This document shows, piece after piece, positions 7,855 through 49,500 of a stretch of DNA of 64,000 bases. The stretch's first letter is position 1. Every line of letters starts with the position of its first letter. The DNA is from Schmidtea polychroa (lineage: Eukaryota). Where the stretch lies: positions 6,014,001 through 6,078,000 of the forward strand of contig CM097886.1 of NCBI GenBank assembly GCA_044892525.1. Direction: 5' to 3'. A program made the translations under genes and the position numbers. Under the pieces are notes generated by a model that was given only the letters and a program-made list of their open reading frames with translations, did not search any database and had not been told where the DNA came from.

Positions 7855-8002
7855 CTGGAAAATGAAAAATTTAATTAATTTTTATTCTGTAAAACAAAAA
7901 GCGTAAACCTTTATTGCATTATGGTTGGTCGAATGCAAAACACAAAGTTTTATATTTATTGAATTAATTTTAAATATATAGTTGTCATCTAGGTACTTTT
8001 AA

Positions 8003-8444
8003 ATGGTTACATGACAAAATTACACAAGACGAAATTACACAAGACGAAATTACACGGGATGAAATTACACTGAGACGAAATTACACAGGATGAAATTGCA
8101 CTGAGACGAAATTACACGGGATGAAATTGCACTGAGACGAAATTACACGGGATGAAATTACACAAGACGAAATTACACTAAAAAATAGTAAGAAACAAAA
8201 TTAAAAAAAATAGTTTAAATTTTAATAAAAAGTTTTAATATAAAAATTAGTAAAAAGTTTTAAAAAATTAGTAAAAGTTAAGTATTAAATTTTTACTAAT
8301 TTTTTATACTATTTTCTACTAATTTTTTTTCTACTTTTTTCGTCTTGTGTAATTTCGTCTTGTGTAATTTCATCCCGTGTAATTTCGTCTTGTGTAATTT
8401 CGTCTTGTGTAATTTCGTCTTGTGTAATTTTGTCATGTAACCAT
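8003..8444. mobile_element. Foldback-type MITE with subterminal repeat arrays
   Basis: Inverted termini ATGGTTACATGAC/GTCATGTAACCAT; about 11 left and 6 right inverted copies of a 15-16 bp unit GAYGAAATTACACNN; TAA flanks both ends (8000-8002, 8445-8447). Confidence 0.85.
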
Positions 8445-10299
8445 TAAAATAATATGTTAACAAAAGTAATATTTATGATATATTTTTAACATATTTTGTC
8501 AATTTAGGTCAATTTAGTTGATGACGTATATATTCGTCATAGCCACTTAAGAGTTTAAGAGTTCTATGATGACGGTATTTAAAAATTAAAAATTAATTAA
8601 TTAAATAAATTCATTAATCAAACAAGCAAGTTCCCGAGCTTGATAGTCGTGACATTGAACTCGGATTAAATTTATTGAAAATCCATGCAAATAACAAAAA
8701 AATAATGATACAATTAGTATTTCCAATATGTTCGAAGAAAAAAAAGAATTATTAAACATGAATAAACGACTAACTTATTGTTATAAAGAATTAATATATT
8801 TTTATTCGTCGGTGCGGATTCAAATTTACATTTGTCTTCTGTAGTGTTACTTGTTCATAGTTCAAACAAAAATGGATTAGCGTAGAACTTCTTACAAAAT
8901 TATGAATGTTGTCATAGAATAAACAGAAAATCATGTCACAAGTTGTTTTTATGAACTTCGAGGAATAGCTAAATTTCAAAGTTTTGCACTTTTAATATTC
9001 CAATCAATTATTCCAATTTATAGTCTGCTGTTCGCTCTATTCCTCACTATGAAACATCCCACATCTTTACCTTTATATAAATTTGAAGATTCCAATGTTT
9101 CGATATTCAAAATTACGAGACTGCCTATATAATGGATGTGTGATTCTCCGGAATGAATATACTTCCATCTATTTATTTATTTCAAAATTCTGATTTGATA
9201 TTCGAGATCAGCTGGCCAAATTACCATAGATGGTCTTGTTTCATTCGATAAAGAATTTTAAAGTTGAAATATTTGTTTTAATTAAGCTATTTCAAATTTC
9301 ATTTAACAAACTATTTAAATTAATCATATACTTGTTGGAAAGATTTTGTTTAATGTGCAATTAGAAAAATTTATGACTCCCATGTTTCTAAGGTTTTATT
9401 CACCAACTACTTATTATTTATAAGTAATTGATGATATTATTATTAAAACAAATATATACTTAAAATCGCATTAATCAAGTTTATGGTCATTATTAGAGAA
9501 AATAAAGCTACAATGCAATTGTTTTTTTAAAATTTATTTCTATGAGATAAGTGAATGAAAATTTCAAAAGAAAAGTCATTCATTTAAACAAAATAAACAT
9601 ATTATTATTATTAAATTTTAAGCTACCTATATTGACATGATGATGATGGGAAATGAAGTTGGTATTTGGTAACCATTGGGGACTAGGTGCATCTCCCAGC
9701 TTCCACAAAAATCCCATTAATAATTCACGGGCAATTCTTTACATGAACATTATTTCTGTGTACTGGACAAAATCTATGAAATCTTCCTATGTTTTTGGAA
9801 TAAAATGAAATATTGAATTAAAACAATTGTTTCATATAAAGTCATTGATGTTAATAATAAAAAGTATTCAGTTGAAAAATTAATGAAGTTACGGAACACA
9901 ACCACCCAAGAGATTTGACGTGTACGTACACAAGATATCTAAATTGGAATTGAATACGTAGATTATACGTATGTTTTTTATTGTTTTCTTTTATTTTACA
10001 ACAGACAATCCATCTGGTTAATTTTATGAAGTAGCCGCACATAATTATTGGTACGCTGCTGAGTCAACGCTGTATATATTTTTTATTATTTTTAATGGTA
10101 TTAGTTTCTATACAAGATTCAGGCAGCACAAATGCTATCAATAAATAATTAAATAGTCATTAAAATTTCATTTTTCGCAGTAAAATTTTCATCACATAAA
10201 CTAATGAGATTGTTGATGAGGTTACGGAATCTCGTAGTTTTATTTAAATGCAATTGTTTGTTTAAATTATATACAAATATTAAGCATATATTATTTTAC

Positions 10300-14267: not shown

Positions 14268-15265
14268 TGTTGGGTTTTACTAGTTCAAGTCGGTAACCTC
14301 TGACTCCACGTGCCCTTTTAATCAAAAAAATAAACTAAGCAACGTATATTTGAATCACGAAAATATATTCTTTCTCGACACAAATAATCAATAACCAAGT
14401 TTTACGAGTTTAACCGATTTTCCGCTCGGTGTTGATGCTTTGAGAAAAAATAATATTCACCGTTTTATTCACTAGCTTCTCTGACCAACGTTTTCCTTTT
14501 TTATTCAATTTGATTCCTTTCCACTTTTTAGGTATCTCCTGGTTCTATATTTTTCTTTTTCTAAACTTCCTAATTCGTCTCTCTCCTGTCCATAAACTAG
14601 TTTTCTTCTAACCCTAGCTGAGGCAAAATGCCGGTTTGGTCTGATTTTCCCATTCCTTATATACTCTTCGAAATTGGGATGACAAATGGTTATTGCCGAG
14701 CCAATCTATCTCTTGACATTCGACTTCACATATCTGCTTCGGCAGTCACTCAGAATGGTCCAACGAACAAGTACTATTAAGGGTCCGATCGGCCTTTCAG
14801 CACGCACTATCTTCTACTCCTTCTCCTGTCTTTTCCCATTAATCATCGTGACACGATAATGGGCCCAAATATTCCTTCTGTTTATTTTTCTCTTTGTTTA
14901 CCCAGCTCGAGATTTCATTCTACTAGCTAATTAATTAATTAATTAATTTCATTTCTTGTCTTTCCTCTTTTACGCACCTTTTCGCACCCTCCTAGCACTT
15001 TTTGAAAATTCCGTTATTCTTCGTTATCTGTTCCACTCATGACCAATTTTTCAGACTTAAATTCGAAGTTATAAATCTTTTATCGATTTTTCTCAAATCA
15101 CCTTTTTTGTGCTTTTTCCATATACTGATGCACCTTCTTGAGCCTTTCTATCCATTTTATTTCTTCTTATTGTCAGTTCCTTACTTGACCAGTCTTACCC
15201 TTCTTTCATTCATTTCATTACAAATATAATTCAATTTTAATTTTAATTATTTTATAACCCCAACA
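14268..15265 (-). mobile_element. Solo LTR (998 bp), diverged member of the 36280/46935 LTR family
   Basis: TGTTGGG...CCCCAACA termini, 4-bp TSD ATAT (14264-14267, 15266-15269), shared internal blocks such as GCTGAGGCAAAATGCCG and ATGGTTATTGCCGAGCCAATC. Confidence 0.85.
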
Positions 15266-26965: not shown

Positions 26966-28582
26966 CCACGATATTATTAAATGTCAGAAAAAACAGACGA
27001 TTTCCAGATTATTTATTTACATTCTTTCAATGAACTTATGCCCAAGCAACATTTCCCATTGTACAGCGTCGCACAGCTATCTTTTTTATAAATAAAAATA
27101 AACTTATATTTAAGTGTCCCGTATTCGTGATTTAGTCGCGCCGGGTGTTTATCAATTCTCTCGGCCCTGTTTCCATTCTTCACTGTTTCTGTAATATTCA
27201 TAATAGACAATCTTTTAACAAGCTGTTGGTTACTTATGGGTGTGTCATTTTTAAAATTTTAAAATATGTTAGGGGTAATCATGGGTATTCACTCGACTCT
27301 TTCCTAAGCACCTCCATGACTATTGTACTTTAAACCATTTGTGTACCCATGGCGACGACCATGTTGGTACTGTACACAAAGGCAAAAAACAATGAGCAGG
27401 TGAGCTCTATTGCTAAAACTACTCCCCATTGTATTTTCTCTTCGGGTTCTAGACTGCCGTTAGAAGGTCTTACGTCATTATTCACTATGTATGCTGTTTT
27501 TAGATTATTTGTGGTCCTCAATTACGGGTATTTCCAATTGTTCTCTTCTAAAATTTTGCGGAGGTATCCACCCTTATTTTCCTACTAATAAATGTTGCTA
27601 GGTATTTTCCTTGATATTTATGAATATTTAACCTATTTTTAAAAAAATTGACAAGGGATCGGCCTTTATTTCCAAGTTAATCCACACTTCCCATAATATT
27701 TAAATTATTCAAAAAATTTGAGCAGGGATCTGTCTGCATTTCTAAGTCTAACCTATTTCCGATCAGAAAATACTTACGGTGACGGACCCGATCAATCCGC
27801 GTGAATCTGAAAAGCCAGCCGACCTACTCGCAAGAGGAACAACTAGTGTCCCTTAAGCTGTGGCCTACTGGATTCCAGCTCCACTATAACTTCTATTCAA
27901 AATTAATTAATGTAAAAGTTGAACCGAATAAAAATTATTATTTAAAAACTTAAAAAGTAAATGAAATCAAACAATTAAAAAGAACAAAAACAAAAAAAAA
28001 TTAACTAAAACTAGATGTAATACAAAGATTTATTAACTTTTAAAAATGTACCTAAAAATTACAAATTAACAAATAAAATTACCACATCCAATACCACGAT
28101 GGCATAAAATCGAAAATTGAGAGCATATGTTCACTGCCTAAAAAACAATGTTGTGTAAATCTGAAAACCAGTTTAACAAGTTGAACAACTGAAATTTCAA
28201 TCCGTATTTATACTGATTGAATTGTACGCCTACGCATTCTCTGCTACTATATCCAATTAGAATGCGAGGCAATTGTGATTAATTTTTGCATACATGCGTG
28301 AATGTGTGCAATTATTTATTTTTAAGATTTATATTTATAAATTCTATATATGAGGAAGTTTTATGATGAAGAAATTTTTAAATTGAAAATTTTAAAAATT
28401 AAAGTTTAGATTAATTTTTAAAAAAACAAAATAAGAAGATATTTTAATAAAAAATATCTTCGTAGAAAATTTGTTTAAATAAGAAAGATTAAAGAAGATA
28501 TAATTTGATTTTGATATTTATTGAAATAAAATTTATGGAAACAAAAACTGATTTTAATGTTTTACAGGATGAACCTCCTAAT

Positions 28583-29625
28583 ATGGTGGCAGCGGTAAAC
28601 ACGGACGCAATCACCGAAAGATTGCTACCAAAGGTATTCTGCCAAGGGGACGATTTGGAAAGGTTCATTAAAAGATGCGAAATTTATTTCGACGCCAAGG
28701 GAATCACGCAGAAGAAAGACCAGGAAAGATTAACATCTTGCATGATTGATGAGGATCTCCTGGAAGTGTACGCCAAAACACTGAAAAAAGCCGAAGGATT
28801 CCAGGCTAGGTTGCGATTGGCATTCGATCGTGAAAGAGATGTTTTAAAGGATCTACAAAACTTGTTGAATTACAAGCGGAAGGGTAAAGAAATAGAAACG
28901 TATTTTAAAAAGGTGGAGGACCTTGTTGATAGGTTGTGCGAAAATAAAGAATTTACCAAAGAGAAATTAACAGCAAGGATGTTAATAGTATGTGCGGAGA
29001 ATAAAGAAGTTGAGAAAGAAGTGATACTACGGAAGATAAAAAGCACAGAAGAGATAAAGGAAACACTAACTCTGATGGACAAAGTAGACAAGCAAAGAGA
29101 GCAGATAAACAGTATGAAAAGTTACGCCAGAGTGGTCTATCAGGAACCACAGGGAAGAGTACAATACAAGAAGAACAGAGAGAAGAAAGTATCCGAAGAG
29201 AAATGCCAGAATGCTGGTTATGTCACAAAATAGAACACACGAAAATTGATTGTCCAATAAAAGGTATAATAGAATGCTGGACATGTCATAGAAGCGGACA
29301 TATAAGTAGAAACTGTCCAGATAAAAAAGCTCCAAGATGTTTTGGGTGTGGGAAAGAAGGTCATATAAGAAGATTGTGTCAGGAAATACGTTGTGAAAGA
29401 TGTAGCAGAAATGGTCATAGATCCGAGGAGTGTTATACAAAGATGAGGTACGGGAGAGCGACGGAGACACAAAGATTCACGGGAAACAGATACAGTCGGA
29501 TAAATGGTATCGAGGAAGAAGAAGAAAGGGAATCGTGTGTAGAGACAAATGAAGATAATTTTAGGAAGACGTACCCAAACAACAGGGCTCCACCAGTAGA
29601 GGAGTTGGTTGGAGCCATATTCTAA
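28583..29625 (+). CDS. gag: Gag of the compact gypsy element, split by one frameshift; four CCHC zinc knuckles
   Basis: ATG at 28583 gives MVAAVNTD..FIKRCEIYF (capsid-like); -1 frame ORF 29203-29625 holds CWLCHKIEHTKIDC, CWTCHRSGHISRNC, CFGCGKEGHIRRLC and CERCSRNGHRSEEC. Confidence 0.85.
29574..29616 (+). promoter_or_regulatory. Putative -1 programmed ribosomal frameshift signal (gag-pol)
   Basis: In-frame C CCA AAC heptamer, 5-nt spacer, then hairpin GGCTCCA(29586-29592)/TGGAGCC(29610-29616); pol is in the -1 frame and open from this point. Confidence 0.75.
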
Positions 29626-32600: not shown

Positions 32601-32672
32601 AGAAATGAAGATGGAAAAAGGATCGAAAGAAATGTGGAAAAACTTAAAAATTTCTTAAGAAGGGGGATATGA
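29634..32672 (+). CDS. pol: Pol polyprotein (protease-RT-RNase H-integrase), uninterrupted
   Basis: LLDTGA (protease), YLDD (RT), ILDTDAS (RNase H), H..CHAG..CEIC, D-D-E and GPY motifs (integrase); gypsy domain order; no chromodomain. Confidence 0.95.
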   Translation: MMGYPQGAEKWEKVYRFLKREMFEEEVERIGTIETEQVVEILYNRMQGRPSITVRMNGENFDCLLDTGARINILSVICFKKQRGQQLTKSDDKLRFANESTIETIGKTKVQVTIGNVSKEVIFIVAEEVTPDVIGGIEFQETFGFRLLKIKDIEASEKDKNYICNIEAKFGRKIRDEERLIRALEQLKINEDSKLKEIITNSGNVFMADKWDVGRTHLVKHKIVTRGEPINIKPYRQPLNLESKIEEAIQNLYENGIIRKCNSPWNTPLICVWKKEKKDIRLCLDFRQLNAVTERQAFPMPNIDEMLDLLGGSVFFSSIDLGNAYYQVELEEESQEKTDFSTKNGQYCFNRMPFGIAAAPGTFQEMMTKVLGKIKGEMVYLDDILIYSSSKEKHYTILGEVLEAIEEAGLRINPEKCQIIKEEIRSLGHIISKEGVQTDPSKIQAIQNFGKPNCVKKLRSFLGICNYYRRFISDYAKKARMLEQLCSGPSNKKLEWSEGTNSVFEGLKLALTTAPILCFPDLKKEFILDTDASFDTIGAVLSQRDKDGKERVIAYGSHSMTSHKKGYCITRKELLAVYYFCIHFKNYLYGRRFTLRTDHKAITFMMTTKKPITSQFQTWINYLSSLDIRVEYRKGINHQNADMVSRTKCDTCVQCQMAHEEAKKGKIKTRLLDSIREEGRSNIQHGIVEEVRKKTMIPENELQETIKEIHRLLCHAGVEKIADYMKDRYIGKHLWSKIQEIVRSCEICQKTKALTITTKEPVKRQDSKEMFEIIFVDICGQLAETKGRKKYILGIIDQYSKYQVLTAITKQDEETIKKTILEKWILRFGCPKEIRADCGKAFESGMMREFTKMLDIKLCLSSPYHHQTNGQIERQFRTIRDLINATLQDRKKTDWAEILPEVEFTLNATKQKTTGKSPAEIVFGKKISREKWYGSKEIPIKEELEEQTRRKFNVGEEVLVKVETRHKGQDRYEGPYKVIEKVHDRRYILRNEDGKRIERNVEKLKNFLRRGI

Positions 32673-33369
32673 GGAAGTTTTATGATGAAGAAATTTTTAA
32701 ATTGAAAATTTTAAAAATTAAAGTTTAGATTAATTTTTAAAAAACAAAATAAGAAGATATTTTAATTAAAAATATCTTAGTAGAAAATTTGTTTAAATAA
32801 GAAAGATTAAAGAAGATATAATTTGATTTTGATATTTATTGAAATAAAATTTATGGAAACAAAAACTGATTTTAATGTTTTACAGGATGAACCTCCTAAT
32901 ACTATAATTTAAGCAGTTTTTGCTAATTTCAATTTAGTTTTACAAGTTTTATAATTTAAATAAGTTTAGTTAATTTTATTTTAGTTTCATTGATTTAAAC
33001 AATTTGGTTTTATAAATTTTATAATTCATCTAATTTTACTACTTTTATTCTACCTTTATCATTTTATCAGTTTACTAGATATTTTATTTTAAATTTATTT
33101 ATTTAACAATTTTTCATATTATTAATTAATTTATTACCCATTATTTTATTTATTATTATTTTAATTTTTAGTTGTTAGATATTCCGAATGCGATATTTCT
33201 CCTAATGATGTTAGTGATTGCGACCTTTTTTTGCGTTCCTTTATTTTATTACTCGTTCTTATTTATCATCAATGTGTTATGTACTTTAATTTGTATTGAT
33301 TGGTATTTTAATTTAATTTTGGTGCGATTTTTATGTCATATATTTTTGATTCATTAAAACAAGCTTTCA

Positions 33370-33560: not shown

Positions 33561-33750
33561 ACTGTGTGAAGTCCTTTTACCGTGGGATAATTTATTTGGC
33601 CTGGCTTGTAGTATTGGTGCGTGTTAATATTTGAAAAATAAAACCGCAATCTAGATTTTAACTCTTGAGATCATTTATTTCAATTTGTTCCTCGTATTAG
33701 TCATCGTGTTATTACTGAAATATAGATTTAAACTTTTCGATATCAATATA

Positions 33751-35378
33751 TAGGGTTTCACGACCAATTTAATAATATTTGCAACCAATTTCATAATTTC
33801 TCGTTCAATTTCATAATTTTTGCAATCAATTCCATAATTTTTGCAATCAAATTCATAATTTCCCGACCAATTTAATAACTTTTGCAATCAAATTCATAAT
33901 ATTTGCAATCAATTTCATAAAAAAATCCTTATTTTTAATTTAAAAAATATTTTATTAAACCCCTATGTCAAATTCAATTTTCAATTCAAACTTAGAAGAG
34001 GACATAGAAGAACCAAGTTCCGAGGAGCGAAATCATACAAACGTTTCTTTGATGTTGGCAACCCCTACAAACACAGCGTTCGCCTCTCCTGTCGCGGAAG
34101 AAACCGGCATACCTAGGAAGATAAATGTAAGTATTTCGGCTAATGATAGAGAGCGGATTATTACAAAGACATTGGAAGGGCATTCGGTAGCAGCGATATC
34201 CTCCATGTACAGCATTAAATATCAAACTGTAAATAGTATTGTTAAAAAATACTTAAAAACTGGTATAATATTTGAGGAAAAGAGTGGCGGTGATAAGCGC
34301 TCTAAGCTTCCAGAGCACGTAAAAGAGGCTCTCATGAGAAACGTTAATGAGGAGTGTACTAAAAGCCTCAAAGATATGAAGAAGTGGATACAAAGCAGTT
34401 TCGGAATCAATGTTTCGATCAGTACCGTCGATCGTGCGCTTTGCCAGTTTCATTACACACTGAAACGCGTGACATTGGTACCTGAACGTCGAAATTGTAG
34501 TTCGACAATTGAGATCCGAGCCATTTATGCAAGCATGTTACGAACCTTAGAAATTGAAAGTGATGATAAAAATTTTGTCTTCCTCGATGAAGTTGGATTT
34601 GCGGTGGTAACACGCCCATCTCGTGGAAGAAGCTCCAAAGGATCATCGCCCTATCTCTCTGTGCCGGCTGCAAGAAGCAGAAATATTTCTGTCGTTGCTG
34701 CAATGAACAAATACGGTATGATCTACCATAAAATCCAGGAAAGAGCTGTTAATGGTGAAGATTTTAAAACATGCTTAAAAGAAATCCATGATTGCTGTAT
34801 TCGCTTAGGAATAGTTTCCCCCATCTTTATAATGGATAATGCCCGCATACATCATTACAGGGGGTTGATTGATGACGCAGAAATATTGTCCTATGGGATA
34901 CAATACCTTCCGCCTTATTCTCCGTTTTTGAACCCCATCGAAAACGTGTTTTCCGTTTGGAAAAATTGTGTCATTCGCAGCAATGCGCGCACTGAAGCAG
35001 AATTAAGAAGCAATATTACCGACAATTTTTATCAAATAACACCTGAACATTGTGCTTCTTTTTATCGAAAAATGCTTAAATATTTACAAAAAGCGGAGTT
35101 AAGACTGGAGATTCTTGAATAGTAAATCTTTAGCTTGAAATTTTTTAAGAATATTTTTTATATTTATAAAATATATTTATATAATTGGTGTTTATTTTTT
35201 AATTTTTTTTATGAAATTGATTGCAAATATTATGAATTTGATTGCAAAAGTTATTAAATTGGTCGGGAAATTATGAATTTGATTACAAAAATTATGGAAT
35301 TGATTGCAAAAATTATGAAATTGAACGAGAAATTATGAAATTGGTTGCAAATATTATTAAATTGGTCGTGAAACCCTA
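33751..35378 (+). mobile_element. Intact IS630/Tc1-mariner superfamily DNA transposon (1628 bp)
   Basis: About 174-bp near-perfect TIRs (33751-33924, 35204-35378) starting TAGGGTTTCACGACC, TA duplication, single ORF inside. Confidence 0.95.
33965..35122 (+). CDS. DD34E transposase, IS630-like
   Basis: HTH N-terminus; FLDEVGF, MDNARIHH and LPPYSPFLNPIE, with 34 residues between the second D and the E. Confidence 0.95.
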   Translation: MSNSIFNSNLEEDIEEPSSEERNHTNVSLMLATPTNTAFASPVAEETGIPRKINVSISANDRERIITKTLEGHSVAAISSMYSIKYQTVNSIVKKYLKTGIIFEEKSGGDKRSKLPEHVKEALMRNVNEECTKSLKDMKKWIQSSFGINVSISTVDRALCQFHYTLKRVTLVPERRNCSSTIEIRAIYASMLRTLEIESDDKNFVFLDEVGFAVVTRPSRGRSSKGSSPYLSVPAARSRNISVVAAMNKYGMIYHKIQERAVNGEDFKTCLKEIHDCCIRLGIVSPIFIMDNARIHHYRGLIDDAEILSYGIQYLPPYSPFLNPIENVFSVWKNCVIRSNARTEAELRSNITDNFYQITPEHCASFYRKMLKYLQKAELRLEILE

Positions 35379-35380
35379 TA

Positions 35381-36275: not shown

Positions 36276-37694
36276 AATTTGTTTGGTTTTAGATTACTTT
36301 AAGTCGGTTCCCTCTGACTCCTAGTGTTCTTTAAATCAAAACAATGAACGACCCAACGTATATTGAAACAACAGGTTCACAATTTATTATCACCACTTTA
36401 CAATCACTAATCAAAGTTCCGTTTGTACGATTCTCCGCTCGGCGTTGATGCTTTGCAAATAGATAATATTCACCTTTTATTCCTTTAGATTCTCTTGACC
36501 CACGTTTTCCTCGGTTTCTGTTTGATTTGATTTCTTGTTCACCTTTCCGTATTCCTAATTCTATTTCTTCTTTTCCATACTTTCCCTAATTCGTTTTCGC
36601 CTTTTCCTAAGCTCTGTTTCTTCCAACCTTAGCTGAGGCAAAATGCCGATTTTCTCTGATTTTCCCTTTCCTTATATACTCCTCGAAATCAGGATGACAA
36701 ATGGTTATTGCCGAGCCAATCTTTCATTTGACATTTGCTCCCACGTATCTGCTTCGGCTGTCACCCATAATGGTCCAACGAATCTAGATAATTAATGGCC
36801 CTTCCGGTCTTCCTACGCGCGCTACCTTCTTGCTTTTTTCCCATTATTCATTGCTTCAAGCTAATGGGCCCAAATCTTCCTTCTGTTTGCTTTTCTTCTT
36901 GTTTACCCAGCTCGGGTTTCCTTTATATCTCGGGTTTCCCATTAGCTCGGGTTTTCCATTAGCCAATTTATTAATTAATTAACGTTTTCTGTTTTCATAC
37001 ATTTGAATGCTTTTCGACCCTTCCTAACCATTTTCTGATAAATCCCTAATCATCATCTTGTTGACCATTAGCTAATCTATACCTGTCCCGTTTTCCCCAT
37101 TCGATTTCGATGATTTTACCATTTATTGATTTTTCTCGGATTTCCGTATTCTTGCCTTTCGTAATTGCTTTTGGCATTTTCTAATACTGCTTCCATGACA
37201 CTTTCCTTTACTATTGATTCTGTGCATGATCCCGCTTTTATTCGTCTTTTTTCTTCGCTTACTTTCTATTTGAATTATTAGCCTATATTTCATTTAAATT
37301 TTATTTTAATTTACGGACCTCAACATATCTCCCCCTTAAAAAAATTTTTTCGTCCTCGAAATCTATGTTTTGCTGTGATTATCCCTTCACAATTATTGTG
37401 TGGACTCAGTTTTTGTTTCATCTTCTGTGGTGACTTTGACATCGGAAGCCTATGAAACGGTTTTTTTGACGAGGCACTGACGAACATATCTGTTTGAGGG
37501 CTTGGATGCTGATTGAGATAGGGTAGATATCACTGAAATTATAATTAATTTTTTTTACATTCAAACCTTTTGACGGCTGTCATGCTTTAATAATTTCGAA
37601 TCTAAATAAATAAGACCCATAGACGATTTACTTATGGTCTCACAGTGTAAAAGTGGTGCAACGAGATATTTAATAAATCTCCAACGAAAATTAG

Positions 37695-38218
37695 TTAAAA
37701 ATATAATAAGAAATCTAAAGAATATGAAACAACTTTAACTGATAAAAATAATCTAGATAAAACTTTGGCATAAAAACTACAACCGTTGTAATGACGCATC
37801 AACATCGCAACAACCATTGGAAACGTGAACAATAGGAAGACCGTATTTAAAGCCAAATATCCGCAAATTCGATTCATGTCAAGATTATTTTTCTGCAGGT
37901 CTGTAATTTGGCTCTTTGAATTTTTGCTGTCCACCACTTTGTGAGAACTGAGGACGCTGTATACATACAATTTGGAACGTATTCCGTTATCCAGCACATA
38001 GTAAGTGAGTACGTATCTCATTTTATCTTATACTCCAGATTCCAATGTTCCAAGCCTTTACTCATGACATCGTCCATCAGAGAATTCATTATTAAAATCA
38101 CAACATGATTACTAGAGATTGCACAAAATAAATGGAAAAACGACTTTTTATGTTCAAATAGATATACCATAATCATGATAACCTGTCCAAGAATTCCAAA
38201 AATAGAAATAATTGGCAA
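37695..38218 (-). pseudogene. Rhodopsin-class GPCR-like fragments (cargo)
   Basis: PIISIFGILGQVIMIMVYL (TM1-like) and LALNTVFLLFTFPMVVAML..VVSYSLDFLLYF (TM6/TM7-like) in two overlapping ORFs; much shorter than a full 7TM receptor. Confidence 0.45.
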
Positions 38219-39053
38219 TGAATAATCTAGAAATGGAGATAAACAGATTTATCAGACTGGCTAATTAACAAAGACGATTGATGTTAAATTTTTGTTGGTA
38301 ACCTCACAACCGAAATAAATTTTGAAAATCGGGTTGTAATCCTTGATATAGCATGAGAAACGCAAAATTCCATTCGGCAGTTGAGTTTGTCTAATTTGCG
38401 GCTGATTATTGAGTTCATCTGAAAGAACAGACACCAACAATTGATAATAAAGATGCCAACGTAAGGGATCCATTCACTATTTATTAGCATTCATTAATTG
38501 TCATAAATAGTTAAGAAATTATTAATCGATTGCCAGTACATGGATAATGGAATTATAATCGCCAATGAATACATCCGAATAAAAAAAACAAATTATCCAT
38601 TAAAACAAACGGTGTTGTTAGGAAATACACACAGACAGTTGTGCATGTCACACACAAACACGATGAGAATTTTCTCTGCCTGTGCAAGTGAGTTGATTTC
38701 GTTGCCAGTGATACAGGAAAATTTGATTTAATTTTCACAGAATTAAAGAATCATCACTCTCCACTGTCATTTGGAGAGCGCGTGTATTTAAAGTTCACTG
38801 TGACTGCATGTATCGATTCCCCTTCTCTTGGGAGATGTGTTACAGTTATTAAGATTAAATTGTTAAAGCACATTTCAAGAAGCTTTCTTACTTACTATCT
38901 TTTTGGTGTGCGTTGGAGTTTGTATGTATTGACTGTCCTGTGCAATCAACTAATCTTCAATTCCAGATCGACGACAATGACTGTTCATGTTTAAATTCAA
39001 GATCACGAATAATAATTTTATTTTTGAATAATAACAATTTGTCCATGTCAATA

Positions 39054-39509
39054 TCAATAAGATAATGCCATCATTGAACAACCTAATGGTCGCATCTCAG
39101 TTGATTGCGTAGAAAGCTGCTTAATATCCGCGATAGACCGACATATTATGTCGCAAGGCATTTCATATCCATGTTTATATCTACATCGAGCTGCTTCCAT
39201 TTGTGCACGACATACTTGAGATCGATAATCAGGGATCATACCAGTCATAACACCTCCAGTACTTTCAGTAATATTAAACAATCTTGTAGCTGAACTCTTC
39301 TCAATCATTTTATCTGGAACCTTTCTTTGTGTAGCTACTACATCACAATTATTGCATCGAATACCAACGGACATCCATCCACCAAATAAATTTAATATTA
39401 GTTGGCCAAAAACACCATTAACATTATCAGATTCATAAATTTCTTCATTAAAAGCAGCCATCATTAACAACTCTTTCCTTAAATCGAAACATAACTCATT
39501 CCAATACAA
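39054..39509 (-). CDS. PSMA6: Proteasome alpha subunit (PSMA6/alpha1-like) fragment ORF within the 3' LTR
   Basis: Residues 43-151 (39057-39383) align gap-free with recalled human PSMA6 ([42 protein letters not shown]), about 60/109 identical. Expression unproven. Confidence 0.85.
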   Translation of the reverse strand: MYWNELCFDLRKELLMMAAFNEEIYESDNVNGVFGQLILNLFGGWMSVGIRCNNCDVVATQRKVPDKMIEKSSATRLFNITESTGGVMTGMIPDYRSQVCRAQMEAARCRYKHGYEMPCDIICRSIADIKQLSTQSTEMRPLGCSMMALSY

Positions 39510-39898
39510 TCGATCGATAAAAATCTAAATCTAAAAATCAAATTACAACAAAACTAATTAATAAAATTGACATACCTATTGCTCGCGTCTGTGTGCGCAC
39601 ACAGCCAAAAACAAAGAAAAGAAAAGCGCACACAGACGCGAGATCAACTAACAACCCAAACACAAAAATGACATTGCTCGCGTCTGTGTGCGCACACAAA
39701 CCCATCACACAATACAACACGCACACAGACGCGCATTGAGCTCATAATTCACCATCCTCCCCCCCTTGACACCTTAGTGTCAATCTCAAATCCCCATCAG
39801 CTTCTCCTTCTTCTTTTATACTCAAACATAATTTGAAGATACATTCCAGTGTCAGTTTATCCCTTCTCCCCTCCATTTTCTGCATTTCCCTCGCCATT

Positions 39899-42799
39899 TT
39901 ATCCCTTTCCCCCTTCATTTCCTGCATTATGGCTCAATCTCCAATAACCCTCACACACCCATCTTTGTATTATATAAGCCGCTGCACCACGCACCTTTTT
40001 TGAAAGATCATTGTGGATTCTCCACCCACCATCGCTATAATCGGCCAAGCAGCTGTTCCTGTTCAGTTTGTTTAGGTGTAATCTCTCCATTATTATTTCT
40101 CCATTTTTCGCCAATTCCATATTCCACACTTTTCCCTGTTGCCTTTCATTTAGTGACCAGTTTTCACTTAATGTTTTTATATGCATCCTACAAAGTCGTT
40201 CTTTGATTGCTTCGTGTTTCGATTCCCCAATCGACACCTCGTCTTTCATGTGCATCTTTAGAGGCGTGCAAGCGAGTTCCAGTGATCCTTGTTGTTTGAA
40301 ACTGTTCGATGATTCGTTCAATTTTTCCAAAACTTCTTTGGCCCCTTGATCATTATCACGTACAGTTTCCCATGATTTTCCATATACCATACTGGTCTCT
40401 TTGTTTTGCCTCTCCCCTCTGGAGTCTTCTGCCCCTTTTACATTATCACGTTCTTCTTTTAATCGATTAACTTCCCCTTCGTCGACCTGCATATCATTAA
40501 CCGCCGCCTCGGGCGTTAAATCCTCTGATTCTGGTTTGTCTTTTTCCCAATTACTCATCACTTCCGTTGTCTTCGGTTCCACAATTTTATCGTCGGATAA
40601 TTTTATGATCTCACCAGCCCGGCAAGCCTCATCTTGCTTTTCCCCTGTATTCATTTTTCCTTGAACATTTTGTCTGATTGTCATAACGTTAACTAATTCG
40701 TTAGTTCTTCCAGAATTGAATATTTGCTCATCTAAATGACTCTGAGCTCCTTGCTCTTCATTAGATGCCTTACTCCTGTCGAGTGGCGTGTCCTCAATTC
40801 CTCGAGATGCCCGTAACTCGTCATTGAACATTTCAGTTACCGCAAAATAACTCTGAACCGTCCTCATTGATGCGTTTTCATTTAATAATTCGTTGTGTCT
40901 TTGCTTACATCCGGTAACCTTGCAGAAAGATTCTTTACGACATTCCTTGGCCATGTGATTTCTTTTGAAGCAATTCCTGCACAGTTTCTTTTCTTCGATG
41001 ACTCTCTTCCTTTCTGAAATTGTGAGTTGCTTAAACTTGTCACATTGGTCTAGGTAATGTTGAACACCACATTGTACACATCCTGATCTATAGCCGTTAG
41101 AGTTATTCACCTGTATAACCGTCCCACTTTTAACTCTGCCATCTGGTTGCCCCGTAAAATGCGTCCAACCTCCTGGATTGAAGCTTTCTCTTTCTCTAGA
41201 CACACCTTCTACTCTTGACACATCATAAGCCCTGGTGCATGGTTGAGTCCCATACACGACCTCGTTAGTGGACCTTAGGATCTCCGCTTCTTGTTGTATC
41301 CATCTTCTCAAATCCTCTATCGTCTCCCGCAATTCCTTTTCTATTTTCTCTTTCTTCCATTTATACACAAGATCCGTTGTCAACTTGCCCAAACACTTTT
41401 GAAAAAGATATCCAAGCTTTAACTCGGATTCTTTTCCAGTGGATTTAAATCGCACGGTGACTGTTTCTAATAATCCAACAAATAAGTCTAGATCCTTCAA
41501 ATCTCCTTCTCGAATTGGCCTGAACTGTTCCATCTCCTCTAACATTGATAAATATATCCTTTCATCCCCGCCATATCGCCTATCCAACTTCTCTTTTGCC
41601 ATTTGATAGGCCTCTGCCGAATATCCTAGATTTTCAATTAACTTTAATGGCTCTCCGTGAAGGTACTTGTGCAGGTGAAACATCTTTTCAACCTCATCAC
41701 CTTCCGCTTCGTCAACACACGCCGTTAAAGCTGCTTTCCATGGTTCGTACTCTTTCATCTTGCCTTCAAAGACAGGTATTGTAATTTTCTGTAGACTTTC
41801 CAGTTTTCTTTTATGCACGGAATTATTCTTCTTGATTGTATCATCATTCACCTTTTCCTTCTTTTCCATAAAAGATTGATTTGCCTTTCTTTCCATCAAT
41901 GCCCCAATTATTTGATGTTTTCCCTCGATCTCTTGCAGGTCTTTATCTAAAATTGCAGTGATGTCCAATCTTTGCAATTTGTTACTGATCGTTCTTAGAT
42001 CTATTAATTCTTCATCTAGACTCTCCTTTTGATCTTCATATTCCTCCAACCATTTGCTAACATCCTTACCCTTTATATCATTCAGAATCTTGTTTCTCAA
42101 TCTCGTTGATCTTCCTTTTTTCATTCTCTTTTTCCACAATTCTTCTTCTAAAATCTCTCCGTCATTGCCACAGCACAGCCTGAGTGACAAATGAAGTGTC
42201 GAACCTACTTGTAAGCTATAATCATTCAATCTTCTTTTATTTTCTAACTGCTTTCCTGCGTATACTAACATTTGACAATTTTCCGGAATTCCTTCTTTGT
42301 CCTGGATTTTTCCTTTTACCTTTTCAATTGTGCCGTTCCATTCAACGTTAAGAGTAATTGTCTTACCAGTAAGAGTTTTGACAAATATTTGATATATACT
42401 TCCCCATCGCAACTCAAAACCCATTACCCCGCTCGCCCTCACCCTTGACTTAGCTCTGTTCTTTACCCTGTTCCCCTGGCTTCCCCCTTTAAAAGAGTGC
42501 TGGGGCCCATAGCAGCACTTTCCCACGCTCGGTAGGGAAGGGAGGATGATTAATTTTACAAAAATAAAATTCAAATAAATGAAAATAAAATTTACATTAC
42601 CCTTGATGATTAATTTTACAAAAATAAAATTCAAATAAATGAAAATAAAATTTACATCACCCTTGATCAGCCGGGGCTGTCTCCACTGAAACATTGGTGC
42701 GTAGCCCCCTGAAGGGAACCACGCTCTGCTACCATGTTCATGTTTAAATTCAAGATCACGAATAATAATTTTATTTTTGAATAATAACAATTTGTCCAT
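39899..42799 (-). CDS. Ubiquitin-like domain fused to BEL/Pao Gag (966-aa ORF; alternative start 42424)
   Basis: Ub at 42167-42394 (52/76 identical to ubiquitin, ends LRLCCG); DUF1759-type Gag ([34 protein letters not shown]); three Cys/His knuckles [37 protein letters not shown]. No protease, RT or integrase motifs. Confidence 0.92.
42546..42668. repeat. 60-bp tandem duplication in the element leader
   Basis: Two near-identical 60-bp units encoding IKG(D/N)[16 protein letters not shown] in frame. Confidence 0.9.
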
Positions 42800-42806
42800 G
42801 TCAATA

Positions 42807-43262
42807 TCAATAAGATAATGCCATCATTGAACAACCTAATGGTCGCATCTCAGTTGATTGCGTAGAAAGCTGCTTAATATCCGCGATAGACCGACATATT
42901 ATGTCGCAAGGCATTTCATATCCATGTTTATATCTACATCGAGCTGCTTCCATTTGTGCACGACATACTTGAGATCGATAATCAGGGATCATACCAGTCA
43001 TAACACCTCCAGTACTTTCAGTAATATTAAACAATCTTGTAGCTGAACTCTTCTCAATCATTTTATCTGGAACCTTTCTTTGTGTAGCTACTACATCACA
43101 ATTATTGCATCGAATACCAACGGACATCCATCCACCAAATAAATTTAATATTAGTTGGCCAAAAACACCATTAACATTATCAGATTCATAAATTTCTTCA
43201 TTAAAAGCAGCCATCATTAACAACTCTTTCCTTAAATCGAAACATAACTCATTCCAATACAA
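42807..43262 (-). CDS. PSMA6: Proteasome alpha subunit (PSMA6-like) fragment ORF within the 5' LTR
   Basis: 151-aa translation identical to 39054-39509. Confidence 0.85.
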
Positions 43263-43625
43263 TCGATCGATAAAAATCTAAATCTAAAAATCAAATTACA
43301 ACAAAACTAATTAATAAAATTGACATACCTATTGCTCGCGTCTGTGTGCGCACACAACCAAAAACAAAGAAAAGAAAAGCGCACACAGACGCGAGATCAA
43401 CTAACAACCCAACACAAAAATGACATTGCTCGCGTCTGTGTGCGCACACAAACCCATCACACAATACAACGCGCACACAGACGCGCATTGAGCTCATAAT
43501 TCACCAATGACAAAGATGAGACATCGAAAATGAATTGAACAGCCCAGCAAAACAACTAACACCAAAGCTCTGTCGTATTTATTTCTGTGTTTAAGTTGTT
43601 AACCTGAAATTTTCTATCCCACTCT

Positions 43626-43943
43626 AATTATTTTTCGGTTTCCGATTTTATTTCTTTTGGTCTGAAATAAGAATTCTCTATTGTTGCCATAGTTGCTAAT
43701 TTGTTTGACTAAACTAATTTAAATGCTTGTCTGAATAAATAAAGAACATTTCCATCGAGATCAAATGATCACACAATTCAATTATTTTTCGGTTTCCGAT
43801 TTCATTTCTTTTGGACTGGAATAAGAATTCTCTATTGTTGCCATAGTTGCTAATTTGTTTGACTAAACTTATTTAAAAGCTTGTCTGAATAAATAAAGAA
43901 CATTTCCATCGAGATCAAATGATCACACAATTCAATTATTTTT
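43626..43943. repeat. 154-bp tandem duplication
   Basis: Units start at 43626 and 43780 and differ by a few substitutions. Confidence 0.9.
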
Positions 43944-44069
43944 TAGTCGATAATAGTTCTATGACCTAATTATAGAAAAATTCAATTAAGTCAAAATTTT
44001 AGTTAACAGCAAAATGAATAAAAAACAATATAAAAGTAAGATACAAATAATTAAATTGGGAATTTCAAT

Positions 44070-44880
44070 GTACAGTATTTTCATTATTAAATTAGAGCTG
44101 GAAAATAGCAACGACATGATTCAAGTTAATTTCAAGGATACTTATTTGAATAATACATTAAAGTTAATGGCGGATATATTGGATGAGGCTTCATTTGTGT
44201 CTGAATCCAATACTGCCCTCCTTATCAAATAGACCGTAACTGACAAAACTACAAAAATCGAGTTAGAGGCGTCAACTGTATGCAGTTGCAATTAACCTTC
44301 ATTCTGCTAAGCGATAAGACCGTATCTAGTCCGAGGCCTTAGAAATTTGATTACTTACATCGACCGTATCTGCTCATGGCGGTGGTATGCTTAACGTTTT
44401 GCTATTTATCTCCTAAGTGTATTTTTGCCTTACGGTCTATTTGATAAGGAGGGCAGAATAAGCCAGCAAAGATTTATCTTCATAGATGATGATGTTTTTA
44501 TCAATTTGAAAAACCTTTATCATTTGTCATCGGATTTCTTTGATAGATCGGAATCTCAATGCCATACCTTACAGATTGAATTGGAGCAGATGGTATGTGT
44601 CGAAAGATCAAAATTTCAATGATGTTTATCCACTGTACGTTTCCGGTTCAACAATAATTGTCAATGAAAAACTTTAACAAAAATCAGTCACGCTATTCCG
44701 TTTGTGAAATATTTCCCATTTGATGATGTTTATTTGGGTTTCGTTTCTGAATCGACCAACATCGAGGTATTCAATGATGCACGCATATTATCAGATTATA
44801 AATGTGGACTACTTTGCTATAAAGATGTAGACAAGAGTATTGCTGTTCATGTACCAAATTATTTATCTAAACTTGAATAT
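44070..44880 (+). pseudogene. GT31-family beta-1,3-glycosyltransferase pseudogene fragments (cargo)
   Basis: ENSNDMIQVNFKDTYLNNTLKLM, FIFIDDDVFINLKNL (DxD), SRWYVS..VYPLYVSGS and FPFDDVYLG are ordered Galactosyl_T motifs; frameshifts and an interrupting segment. Confidence 0.8.
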
Positions 44881-45254
44881 TTTTATCTTAAAAATGCCAA
44901 AGGACAACTTTTCTATTCTCTTTATTTTAATTTTGTATTGATAAATTCTGTAATGAAAATAATCAATTTTATCTATATTATTTCTCATTCAATGCCTCCC
45001 GCCCAAATCGAACCCCGCCTAAGCAAATGGTTCAGAATCCACCGTCCACAAATGTCGCAATCAATGGGAATTCTCTTGCATCCACTTCAAATTCGACACA
45101 AAGTGAGACTAACAAAAACGTGTGTTTTAATACTTCTTGTTTATAGATAAAACTCAATTCACAGATGGCCCCACCAGCGACCAATAGATCCCGAACCGCC
45201 CAACAGCAATCCCCAAGTGGCTTTCCCTTTTTTTTTGAAGAGACATGCGTTATT

Positions 45255-46553
45255 TTACTTTATGTATGTTTGAATGAATGTTTGTGAGTAACAAGAATAC
45301 TGAATACAAGAATAGTTTTTTTTTATCTCCCCATCAGACCCAATTTTATTTCCACAATTTGGATATATTACAGTAACATAGACAGACGATGGAAGAAATC
45401 TTGAGTCAGTAACTGTATAATAGTATATTAATTTTTTATAAATGCTCCAGATTAGTTTCAATATAACACAAATAATACCTAAATTTATAAATGTAAAATC
45501 ATTATTCAACTCACATTTTTTGAGCATATTGTATTTCTCTTTATTGTTTATATTTTGCATCAAATTATTATTGAATTTTGGTAAATTCAAATGAGATATG
45601 TTTTCTATAACCAACACCTTTTCATAAGAGATTTCATTAGTCTGAACTATCGATAAATTTGCAATAAATGTTTCGACCTTCGATATTTCTGATAGTAATT
45701 GGGTATGATCATCAGATATAGATTCATCTTCTTTCACACAACTCCCTAAGTAACCTTTATACAGCTGACATTTATCTTCAATATTCAAAATTTTTTGATC
45801 AACTTTTTCCGAAATGATATCACTTATTCTGTGATCTTTAGATTCATAATTACATGAGGAAGGATTTATTTCAATATCATATATATCATTAAAAGTATTT
45901 AAGTGGCTATAATTAACATTCGGATGATACGGAAAATCACTACTTCTCACTTTATGTTTGAAGCCTTGGACATTATAATCTTTAAGCTTATTACAATCAG
46001 CCATCATTCGTTCAACACTTGAAAGTTTCCTTATTAAATCAAACACATCATCATATTGTACCATAGCAGCCATTGATTTCAAATCATTGTTGATACCTTT
46101 CAGAAATATATCGATAATAATATTCTGAATATTAATGTCATCATTAACAGAGTTTATTGAGAATGCCTTCCTCGCCAATGAAATCACATTGTACCCAAAT
46201 TCAATAATGGATTCATCTGATCCTTGTATTCTTTAATAAAATGTTTTCTTCATCATCCTTTTAATATCAGGGCATATAAATTTACTTTCCAACGTATCTT
46301 TTAATTTATTCCAGTCATTTTCAACTATTTTCTTATTTATTTGCTTCCAGACTTCTTTGGCTGTTCCTTTCAAATATAACGGAAATCTTTGCACCATTAT
46401 CTCTTCTGACCATCCATATGCTGACGCATACATATAGTAATCGTCCATAAAATCAGCGAACTCAACAGGGTCTCCTCCATATTGGTTGACTGGTAATTTT
46501 TGGCAACTAGCCATTTGGGTTTGTTTCTGACTTCTGAGGTTATATCGATTCAC
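45255..46553 (-). pseudogene. gag: Ty3/gypsy-type gag of the large element, one in-frame stop at 46233-46235
   Basis: QYGGDPVEFADFMDDY..YGWSEE..FPLYLKGTAKEVW..W..LK..LESKF then *RIQGSDESIIEF in the same frame (retrotransposon gag motifs). Confidence 0.85.
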
Positions 46554-49500
46554 TTTGGGCTAAAATTCAAACGGTAAATAATAATTTAAATTTACTTTTC
46601 CTAAATCAAATTCTTTAATCAATTCAATCTTCTAATAATGACCTTCAATATTTATCTCGTCAATACTATTCTCCAATACATTTTTTTAACTACTTCCAAT
46701 TATTCTCCACCGACTGAGATCACGCCTGTACTCTTTTTCCAAATATTTTTGCAATAATTTTCTGCAGACTTTCTATCGCGTCGGTATTATTTTCCAAAAA
46801 AAATTTTCCACTACTTTCGATAATTTTCCTCCGACTTTCAATCACGTCGGTACTAATTTTTTAATAATTTCTTTTTCAATAGCTTTCAATAATTTTCCTC
46901 CGACTTTGTATCACGTCGGGCTCACCAGAATATATGTTGGGTTTTAGATTACTTTAAGTCGGTTCCCTCTGACTCCTAGTGTTCTTTAAATCAAAACAAT
47001 GAACGACCCAACGTATATTGAAACAATAGGTTCACAATTTATTATCACCACTTTACAATCACTAATCAAAGTTCCGTTTGTACGATTCTCCGCTCGGCGT
47101 TGATGCTTTGCAAATAGATAATATTCACCTTTTATTCCTTTAGATTCTCTTGACCCACGTTTTCCTCGGTTTCTGTTTGATTTGATTTCTTGTTCACCTT
47201 TCCGTATTCCTAATTCTATTTCTTCTTTTCCCTACTTTCCCTAATTCGTTTTCGCCTTTTCCTAAGCTCTGTTTCTTCCAACCTTAGCTGAGGCAAAATG
47301 CCGATTTTCTCTGATTTTCCTTTTCCTTATATACTCCTCGAAATCAGGATGACAAATGGTTATTGCCGAGCCAATCTTTCATTTGACATTTGCTCCCACG
47401 TATCTGCTTCGGCTGTCACCCATAATGGTCCAACGAATCCAGATAATTAATGGCCCTTCCGGTCTTCCTACGCGCGCTATCTTCTCCTTGCTCTTTTCCC
47501 ATTAATCATTGTGTCAAGCTAATGGGCCCAAATCTTCCTTCTGTTTGCTTTTCTTCTTGTTTACCCAGCTCGGGTTTCCTTTATCTCTCGGGTTCTCCAT
47601 TGGCTCGGGTTTTCCATTAGCCAATTAATTAATTAATTAACGTTTTCTGTTTTCATACATTTGAATGTTTTTCGACCCTTCCTAACCATTTTCTGATAAA
47701 TCCCTAATCATCATCTTGTTGACCATTAGCTAATCTATACCTGTCCCGTTTTCCTCATTCGATTTCGATGATTTTATAATTAATTGATTTTTCTCGGATT
47801 TCCGGATTCTTGCCTTTCGTAATTGCTTTTGGCATTTTCTAATATTGCTTCCATCATACTTTCCTTTACTATCAATTCTGTGCATGATCACGCTTTTATT
47901 TGTCTTTTTTCTTCGCTTACTTTCTATTTGAATTATTAGCCTATATTTCATTTAAATTTTATTTTAATTTACGGACCTCAACAAATTTAAAGAGTTATTA
48001 TTATTAATATTATTTACATTAGATTTTGGTATATTGCTATAATTATTAATATTAGAATTTGATTTAAAATTGTTATAAAAATTGTTATCCATTGCACTGT
48101 GCTGACCAGTGTCAAGGATTTGTTTATTATTAAAATATGATTTATAATTATAAAAATTCTGAGCATAATTACCGTTATTTCCATTTTTATAGAATATCCT
48201 TCTTGCAGGGCAGTAGATTCTCCAGTTGTCATGAGATTGTGGTTTATTATTAATCGGAGCATTTCTTGGTTTGGGATCATGATTCTTATTTCGGTCATTG
48301 GGAGTCATTCTCCCAATACCCTCAGCAGTAGTAATACTATGGGATTGCATATTTGAGGCTGTTCGAGTATGAAGTGGGTTGAGGCTGTTCGTGGTCATTC
48401 CTTTCCTAGCATAGTAAAACTGAAAAAATCCAGATCTGCTTGGACTACACTTGGATCTGGCAGAAATCTAAATTACTACCTGAACTAAACTCATCAGACA
48501 GAGGTTGGAACTGCTCATACAAGAAAGCCTCTCCTAATCAAAGAACTAACCTTCGAATGAATGTCCGGTGCATCTATTTGAGCCATGGCTGATCATGTTA
48601 TGCTTAGCCATGTTTATCCTATATTGTGCTCAGCGATGCTTACCGGAGAAACTCTGAAAACCACGTACCATTGCGGGAGTTTTTAACTCTAGCAATAGAA
48701 AACAGTATTTAGTAAAAAACATGAAAAATTAAGTGGCGAGAAGTTCTCCCCTTCGGCCTTATGGCCAGTGCGAATTTAGTAAAATACAATTTGATTTTTT
48801 TTTATTATATGAATAAATAAAAGAATCAGATTTATTTGAGTCAGGAGGTTTCGTAAGATCTTCTTGGATATCTTCGCGATTTTTCTCAAATAAATGTTTT
48901 GTTTGGTCATTTTCTCTCACCAAAAAAAATCAAATTTTATTTTATGATATCAAACTGGCTTCTTGCCGAAGGGGAGATTAATTCTCACCCTTACGTAATC
49001 TGCAGCTTTTATGTAAGATATCTTCGGATGCTAGAGTTAAAAACTCCCGCATCAAACGGGTTTTCTCCGGAACGCTTCAATCAGGCTGGGTATCGGATAA
49101 TCATGGTAGGCCATGGCCATCATGCAACTCCGGACATTGGCTCATTCATTTATTGGAATGATTGAGGGGCACTATCCATTCATTCGGTTTATTCGGGTTA
49201 TCCTTAGGTTAGATCTAAAACGGTGATAAGTGTATTGGAGTAGGAAGACTCCATTTGTGATCTTTATAGCGCTTATAAGTTAATACTTATTATAGTTAAA
49301 ATAAGAAAGGGTAGTTAAGGATTGATAGTGTTATAATAAAGATATAAACGATTAAAAAGTATTGTCAATAGGCGGAATCCATACAAGGAAATCCTACATT
49401 TACCTATTGATAATAGAAGCGAAACATTGTTTAAAAGGGTTTCTTTCTTTTCTTTTTATGGTTATTAGATTTTTTGGTAATGGGTTTCTTTTTGTGGTCA

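Follow-up and report, generated by a model that had tools for sequence, protein, structure and literature searches.

How did a single pair of long terminal repeats (LTRs) in the flatworm Schmidtea polychroa come to enclose fragments of several host genes and no polymerase? We analyzed a stretch of 64,000 nucleotides (nt) of this genome (GenBank assembly GCA_044892525.1, contig CM097886.1, positions 6,014,001 to 6,078,000, i.e., G000:C2:6014001-6078000 in our locus coordinates), hereafter the window, in which an 11.7-kb LTR element, called here the outer element, occupies positions 36280-47983 on the minus strand as a single insertion (Table 1). Numbers preceded by L designate other loci fetched from the same genome. 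The window copy is very probably an aged member of a multicopy, pol-less Gypsy family that has kept a capsid-derived gene. It carries pieces of no fewer than five unlinked host loci. These were likely acquired from host RNA through template switches, while a 16- to 18-kb, env-bearing helper of the same LTR family copied the element in trans.

Self-comparison of the window aligned the two outer LTRs at 96.9% identity (Kimura two-parameter distance 0.027), with TG..CA ends, and the flanks could be read directly as a target-site duplication. From its 5′ end the element is composed of the 5′ LTR, a 7-nt spacer, an 18-nt primer-binding site (PBS), a leader, gag, the cargo, a polypurine tract (PPT), and the 3′ LTR. 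A tRNA-Trp 3′-end pattern had 821 matches genome-wide and its reversed control had none; the exact 18-nt primer site of the outer family occurs 941 times in the genome. No tRNA gene was found within the window. ARAGORN called six tRNA-Trp genes in L210 and zero in L209; in L210 (G000:C4 from 55,022,433 onward), tRNA-Trp(CCA) genes are repeated in tandem every 284 bp. The matched LTRs of about 1.05 kb, the AATT duplication, the Trp-type PBS, and the PPT described in the initial annotation were thus confirmed.

Such a structure might also be left by two independent LTR insertions that bracket ordinary host DNA and share a 4-bp duplication by chance. The solo LTRs of the family are abundant (3,666 candidates at first look, 40 of them scored), their target sites are AT-rich (the GC content of the window is 25-40%), and the window's LTRs are 2.7% apart. 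Among 30 LTR loci fetched, two were the window's own, four had internal sequence attached, and 24 were of the solo type, 23 of which carried an exact 4-bp duplication. The solo LTRs already reported at 4662 and 14268 in the window are real, the latter representing a diverged subfamily. However, PBS and PPT are inside the LTRs and in the correct order, the enclosed pieces trace back to five unlinked loci, distributed over four contigs, and the same gag-plus-cargo interior is found between the same LTRs at nine places besides the window, which already refutes independent insertion and leaves it a negligible probability. The single-copy, syntenic cargo that the initial annotation had named as a sign of a chance 4-bp match was not what we found, the cargo being multicopy, in the same LTRs and at unlinked places.

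The piece related to GT31 galactosyltransferases was present in ten element copies and in one LTR-free parent gene (18 matches, with all 14 candidates scored). Five of the ten copies, the window's included, are bounded by two LTRs and lie at unlinked sites, each within its own matched 4-bp duplication (AATT in the window, AATT in L053, AACA in L054, ATAC in L055, and GGTA in L058/59), and these supply the other full-length copies that had been called for. The LTR pairs of L053, L054, L055, and L058/59 differ by 0.2 to 0.4%, as against 2.7% in the window, and the family has therefore moved recently. These young copies are 6.3 to 6.4 kb long. The window copy is aged and received a BEL/Pao element and a miniature inverted-repeat transposable element (MITE) after its own insertion; both together amount to 4.8 of its 11.7 kb, so that the underlying outer element measures about 6.9 kb. 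L051 runs uninterrupted across both insertion sites. The joints 38974-43505 and 44208-44457 in sequencing-run contigs were rejected as empty alleles, as other copies or parents could yield them. The presence of the same cargo in ten copies upholds the idea of an LTR vehicle that carries and re-disperses host fragments.

Host parents were found for five cargo pieces. The piece derived from a rhodopsin-family G-protein-coupled receptor (GPCR) has 92.3% substitution identity (744/806) with the intact 7tm_1 host gene L070, the 5′ part of a small unnamed gene 96.4% (402/417) with L103, and the GT31 piece 97.4% (605/621) with the intact 362-codon gene L110; the pieces from L105 and L141 match at 220/226 and 258/265 positions. 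No parent was identified for small stretches, e.g., 38705-38846. A 154-bp tandem duplication is present at 43626-43943, in the region of the L141 piece. In the window itself the gag (PF03732, E 3.5e-4) and GT31 (PF01762, E 7e-4 to 0.09) matches are weak and under the Pfam cut-off, whereas the intact parents score clearly (GT31, E 1e-25; 7tm_1, E 3e-17). The gag, GT31, and GPCR-like fragments recognized earlier were confirmed. Protein relatives of the GPCR parent have 70 to 72% identity, and 39% in Paragonimus. Besides the cargo, no element sequence was found in the 20 to 30 kb fetched around each of the GPCR, GT31, and L103 parents; short LTR-like matches are found some kilobases away from the L141 parent. 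The parent gene at L103:5199-5763 (G000:C2:98.468 Mb) encodes a hydrophobic leader at its start and a Ser/Thr-rich stretch and has no Pfam match.

Two of the cargo genes retain traces of splicing. A 55-nt GT-AG intron of the host gene L103 is exactly missing from the window at 38430/38431, and in L061 and L099 the upstream exon of the GPCR gene is joined to its coding exon, a 3,370-nt GT-AG intron being exactly missing. The check on parental genes and intron loss proposed earlier thus gave a positive answer, with parents that are devoid of LTRs. The exact absence of introns argues for capture via spliced RNA, unlike in Pack-MULEs, and the earlier analogy with these holds for the outcome, i.e., gathered host fragments, and fails for the route. 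A 996-nt contig of sequencing run X7, which is RNA by guess only, crosses the 55-nt intron point ungapped, carries host alleles, and extends off the element; contigs of runs X1 and X5 have inserted letters at this position. X7 contigs over gag were rejected as evidence of expression, given that X7 is only guessed to be RNA; none of the runs that contain these sequences is on record as RNA, so that contigs alone bear on co-transcription with the LTR.

Alternatively, gap repair or gene conversion might have placed the cargo in a resident copy as DNA, a route proposed for Pack-type DNA transposons; retrotransposition would have spread it only later, its introns being spliced from element RNA. A sense intron would then be lost just as cleanly in the next cycle, nothing points to an RNA origin of the GT31 piece, which is antisense, or of either non-coding piece, and nested DNA-level insertions are found in the 1,000-2,500 region of L051, L052, and L064. 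However, 3.4 kb separate the leader exon of the GPCR gene from its coding exon, which would call for a genomic capture of 4 to 5 kb, and no intron-retaining copy was seen in the loci set against the GPCR and L103 parents. Two of the six junctions viewed have overlaps, 5 nt between the L141 and GT31 pieces and an imperfect similarity of about 19 nt between GT31 and element, in AT-rich DNA and without a shuffle control. The GT31/element junction is common to the cargo copies, as in secondary copies with the same switch points. Such short junction similarities would fit template switching (PMC5131818). We consider DNA-level entry improbable and favor capture from RNA, in which co-packaged host RNAs would have been copied into the element by template switches.

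Relatives of the outer element bear on the order of events. L063 to L066 are pol-less and have the same gag frame without the GT31-block cargo; they are 4 to 5 kb in total (about 5 kb for L063), with internal lengths of 1.9 to 2.9 kb in L063, L065, and L066. Cargo-free L064 has also transposed, as it has a matched duplication and LTRs 1% apart. A different 500-bp 3′ segment in L063 (internal positions 1-500), also present in L064 and L065, could be another captured piece. Some relatives carry GPCR pieces without GT31, and L052 and L061 hold helper-type segments as well. The GT31 piece is 2 to 3% from its parent and the gag-tail lineages are about 12% apart. Since cargo-free pol-less relatives exist and the GT31 piece is closer to its parent than the gag-tail lineages are to each other, the cargo was probably added to a family that was already pol-less, pol being lost before GT31 capture; the claim that cargo had replaced pol was not supported. 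Identities to the parents suggest that the GPCR piece was captured first and GT31 late. The tail and capsid of L063, which has no cargo, are 99% identical to those of L053, whereas the window copy is 88% identical to L053 in the tail and 95 to 98% in the cargo, and therefore one cargo block stands behind two gag lineages. Most simply, this block would have been swapped by recombination between co-packaged RNAs. The flatworm thus offers a dated, stepwise series of host-mRNA captures, with parents, helper, cargo-free relatives, and recombinants in one genome, and the order and route of gene capture by LTR elements are therefore directly testable.

We searched the outer element by tblastn with the pol proteins of the candidate helper and of BEL elements and found no reverse transcriptase (RT), RNase H, or integrase, in agreement with the initial annotation. 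The sole match to gypsy pol was 16 amino acids long (E 0.56). Without protease, RT, RNase H, and integrase, the outer element is a non-autonomous Gypsy LTR retrotransposon. We traced the candidate helper from LTRs beside which only the final 57 bp of the interior are shared. Four such elements of 16.4 to 17.6 kb have 4-bp duplications, LTR pairs 0.3 to 0.5% apart, and 1.06-kb LTRs that are 87 to 90% identical to those of the window. Proteins of this family match gag, zinc knuckle, ubiquitin (weakly, under the Pfam cut-off), the PF24664 fusion glycoprotein, aspartic protease, RT, RNase H, and integrase; env is in frame between gag and pol, and the order RT-RNase H-integrase is that of Gypsy elements. 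Outer element and helper have the LTR family, primer site, 3′ end, and capsid domain in common, the rest of the helper polyprotein being missing from the former. One helper copy is inserted within a cargo copy (L056/L057). Because of the young LTR pairs and separate target sites, we infer that the helper mobilizes the outer family in trans; its proteins would package, reverse-transcribe, and integrate outer-family RNA. A 7.6-kb helper derivative at L083:1830-9463 (G000:C1:24.26 Mb) has kept gag and env without pol, has identical LTRs and a GTTG duplication, and is a second, very young non-autonomous type.

The candidate helper resembles the planarian Burro and GYPSM1 elements, with which it was likened by description only. 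According to PMC6431247, these elements, like the candidate helper, encode gag and zinc knuckles together with a ubiquitin-like domain, and their fusion-glycoprotein env likewise sits in frame after gag and before pol, the order gag, env, pol being that of Burro. It differs by its length of 16 to 18 kb, about half that of Burro (>30 kb in the same source), and the outer element itself is a pol-less derivative.

The single gene of the outer element fuses a capsid domain to an orphan tail. Its frame is open over 466 to 497 codons in L053, L054, L055, and L059. Residues 27 to 170 match the helper gag at 44%; the tail beyond residue 170, of about 280 residues, has no similarity to the helper polyprotein. 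No relative of the tail was found among 1.84 billion representative sequences, no Atlas match was usable, and no host parent stood out among 99 genome matches (100 of 100 candidates scored, about 49 places). The protein has one hydrophobic 19-mer (mean hydropathy 2.3) and no zinc knuckle, and a single-sequence fold prediction of the tail was unusable (mean predicted local distance difference test score, 32). Between the window and L059, 40 of 99 differences in the tail are synonymous, as against 22.9 expected with random placement (P = 0.0003), while shifted-frame controls gave 21/100 and 20/98, neither significant. These substitution patterns show that the capsid-tail frame has been under purifying selection between lineages, and the protein may aid the propagation of the element, with the cargo as a passenger. 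With a selected tail attached to a solitary capsid domain, the gene suggests that elements regarded as "defective" can evolve a protein of their own.

One might go further and view the family as a satellite of an env-bearing, retrovirus-like element. Its membrane-anchored capsid variant, consisting of capsid domain, orphan tail, and hydrophobic helix without nucleocapsid, would co-assemble with helper Gag, favor its own RNA or restrain the helper, and carry host-mRNA fragments, stitched together, across the genome and perhaps from cell to cell in this stem-cell-rich animal. We regard this scenario as doubtful. An action of the tail protein on helper particles, if real, would make it the animal equivalent of satellite or restriction-type Gag proteins.

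A number of observations weigh against the reading as a gag-keeping family that captured host RNA with the aid of a helper. L051 has both LTRs with mismatched flanks, the flanks of L063 are also mismatched, and four other cargo copies are truncated or interrupted. No empty-site joint was present among the 15 joints shown of 79 in sequencing-run contigs. Passage through RNA is shown for no more than two of the cargo genes, since GT31 is single-exon, as is most of the GPCR coding region, L105 and L141 are without gene model, and the window GPCR piece ends before the spliced junction. The antisense orientation of the GT31 piece requires an antisense transcript or a plus-strand switch. Mobilization in trans and co-packaging rest on shared cis signals. 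Selection on the tail reached P < 0.05 in 11 of 12 copy comparisons, which share lineages and are not independent, and the capsid part alone was significant in one of 11 comparisons with data. Lastly, the cargo also shows some synonymous excess, marginally in the window GT31 piece relative to its parent (7 of 16 differences, P = 0.03) and further in the GT31 piece of L109 and the GPCR pieces of three of 11 copies (L062, L069, and L100).

This last point raises the possibility that the cargo is functional, i.e., that GPCR, GT31, or other pieces yield protein or regulatory small RNAs to the benefit of element or host. Among 43 loci compared, 19 that are element-like contain the GPCR segment, and the antisense GT31 piece could yield small RNAs against its parent. 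However, the GPCR and GT31 pieces of the window are truncated and frameshifted, deletions in the cargo vary from copy to copy, and cargo-free lineages such as L064 transpose too. The window GPCR piece is near neutral (16 of 57 differences synonymous, 13.2 expected, P = 0.22), and host-side selection can explain a synonymous excess of cargo relative to parent. A functional cargo thus appears quite unlikely, and we favor a passenger role. The GPCR piece of L069 has 33 of 69 differences synonymous as against 17.9 expected; together with those of L062 and L100 it may stem from an independent capture, with a paralogue as parent, or from a phase of selection.

How does this family relate to known systems? 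Pack-MULEs are DNA transposons with terminal inverted repeats, a long target duplication, and intron-retaining cargo. They are likewise mobile vehicles that gather fragments of several host genes, but the outer element has direct 1-kb LTRs, a 4-bp duplication, and cargo that has lost introns. The interiors of large retrotransposon derivatives (LARDs), the class invoked in the initial annotation, are non-coding, with a conserved structure. The outer family keeps a gag-derived frame under purifying selection, is no LARD in the strict sense, and is closer to TR-GAG elements. LARDs are described in PMC6431247 (citing Kalendar et al. 2004) as a stretch of DNA caught between two LTRs that replaces coding sequence and is moved in trans, to which the DNA between the outer LTRs is comparable. 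TR-GAG elements of plants, according to Chaparro et al. 2015 (PMC4350172), have LTRs, PBS, PPT, a target duplication, a single gag frame without pol, and many separate insertions, all as here. They are <4 kb with a 5-bp duplication, as against 6.3 to 6.4 kb (about 5 kb in L063) and 4 bp in the present family, which belongs to an animal, has a gag ending after the capsid domain followed by an orphan tail without zinc knuckle, and comes with host cargo and a candidate helper.

With regard to mechanism, LTR-mediated retroposition in metazoans was reported by Tan et al. 2016 (PMC5131818), who cite maize Bs1. In the portions of that paper drawn on here, partial intron-less host mRNA pieces lie between LTRs, with several parents per locus and onward copying as a non-autonomous element, as in our case, and junctions have short similarity, to which the overlaps at two of our six junctions may correspond; flatworms are not among the taxa named there. 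The vehicle described here differs in that it is an established family with a selected capsid-tail gene of its own, with at least five parents, likely acquired stepwise, ten dispersed copies of the fullest block, and cargo common to lineages. The outer family is structurally nearest to plant TR-GAG elements, and its mechanism is like LTR-mediated retroposition; the basic process is already in print, and the combination of features appears to be new. A literature search turned up no account of these families; they may nevertheless be described in Repbase, in Grohme et al. 2018, or in supplements to papers, which lay outside it.

The nested ubiquitin-gag element noted previously within the outer element is present, and could now be assigned to BEL/Pao on account of its DUF1759 gag; the ATGAC duplication and a proteasome fragment in each LTR are added to its description, and the MITE had been missed. 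It is typical of BEL/Pao in its gag and 5-bp duplication, and full-length relatives with RT, Pao peptidase A17, and integrase occur; it differs in having a spliced PSMA6 fragment inside the LTR and ubiquitin before gag. The LTR holds residues ~35 to 141 of proteasome alpha-6 (E 2.6e-36, with flatworm PSMA6 among the matches), and an assignment to a proteasome beta subunit was rejected. Compared with the host gene L201, the fragment has 92.3% identity and lacks precisely the 43-nt GT-AG intron of that gene. All 150 candidates scored, out of 1,942, match this LTR piece at 89 to 100%. The PSMA6 piece shares a reading frame with ubiquitin, or with ubiquitin plus gag, at seven of 15 loci, several of which were picked because their frames were long; in the window it does not.

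Purifying selection on the PSMA6 piece was not found relative to the host exons (48 and 46 distinct copies). An earlier apparent synonymous excess was rejected since the differences were shared through the window reference, as was the use of stop-free pieces as a sign of selection, toward which a protein search is biased. No literature was found on BEL/Pao elements with PSMA6 in the LTR, or on a ubiquitin-gag fusion in the titles and abstract openings of the papers listed. Longer intron-less PSMA6 pieces (residues ~15 to 190) are found at L203 to L208, with no BEL gag within 1.5 kb, and L188 (G000:C2:97.51-97.52 Mb) is a head-to-tail array of the PSMA6-LTR ubiquitin-gag element with a period of about 3.5 kb. 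Amplified at least 150-fold inside the nested LTR, this host coding sequence will confuse gene annotation by creating false PSMA6 paralogues.

Table 1 Positions of the outer element, its cargo, and other mobile elements in the window
Feature	Position	Strand	Remarks
Target-site duplication AATT, outer element	36276-36279 (left copy); 47984-47987 (right copy)		Direct reading of flanks
3′ LTR, outer element	36280-37325	-	1,046 bp
Polypurine tract	37326-37339	-	
3′ interior end common with autonomous element, including PPT	37326-37382	-	57 bp, 98%
Rhodopsin-family GPCR mRNA fragments	37408-38217	-	Sense to element, internal deletions; parent L070, G000:C3:116.07 Mb
5′ part of small unnamed host gene	38283-38704	-	Sense; parent L103, G000:C2:98.468 Mb
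Non-coding piece from L105	38847-38981, resuming at 43512-43636 past the nested insertion		97-98%; parent at G000:C1:145.755 Mb
Nested pol-less BEL/Pao element	38982-43506	-	5-bp ATGAC duplication at 38977-38981 and 43507-43511
Nested LTRs	38982-39754; 42735-43506	-	770/773 columns identical
PSMA6 fragment in nested LTRs	39022-39387 (3′ LTR); 42775-43140 (second copy, 5′ LTR)	-	Parent L201, G000:C1:117.275 Mb
Ubiquitin-DUF1759 gag-zinc knuckle frame	39899-42823	-	974 codons stop to stop; ubiquitin 42176-42388, DUF1759 41348-41770
Non-coding piece from L141	43669-44087		97.4% over 265 bp; parent at G000:C1:200.669 Mb
GT31 galactosyltransferase, 3′ part (~codons 143-355 of 362)	44083-44947	+	Antisense to element; parent L110, G000:C4:52.555 Mb; 97-98.5%
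MITE	44213-44456		244 bp, terminal inverted repeats, AATA duplication; splits the GT31 piece of the window copy
gag frame: capsid domain followed by orphan tail with a single hydrophobic helix	45255-46559	-	In-frame stop at 46233-46235 in the window copy
PBS for tRNA-Trp	46910-46927	-	18 nt, complementary to the 3′ end of tRNA-Trp(CCA) genes
5′ LTR, outer element	46935-47983	-	1,049 bp
Solo LTR of outer family	4662-5692	-	89% identity, AAAT duplication
Solo LTR, diverged subfamily	14268-15265	-	76-79% over ~660 bp, ATAT duplication

Other repeats were noticed elsewhere in the window. A 1.6-kb element at 33749-35380, with 177-nt inverted arms (99%) made of 21-nt subrepeats, is probably a DNA transposon derivative, and 7998-8449 is a foldback element of 450 bp, each arm of which contains 15-nt subrepeats. 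Direct repeats of 236 bp at 28348-28583 and 32667-32901, 98.7% identical and 4.3 kb apart, are possibly the LTRs of another element. To the right of the outer element, 48672-49051 is a degenerate palindromic stretch of 380 bp.

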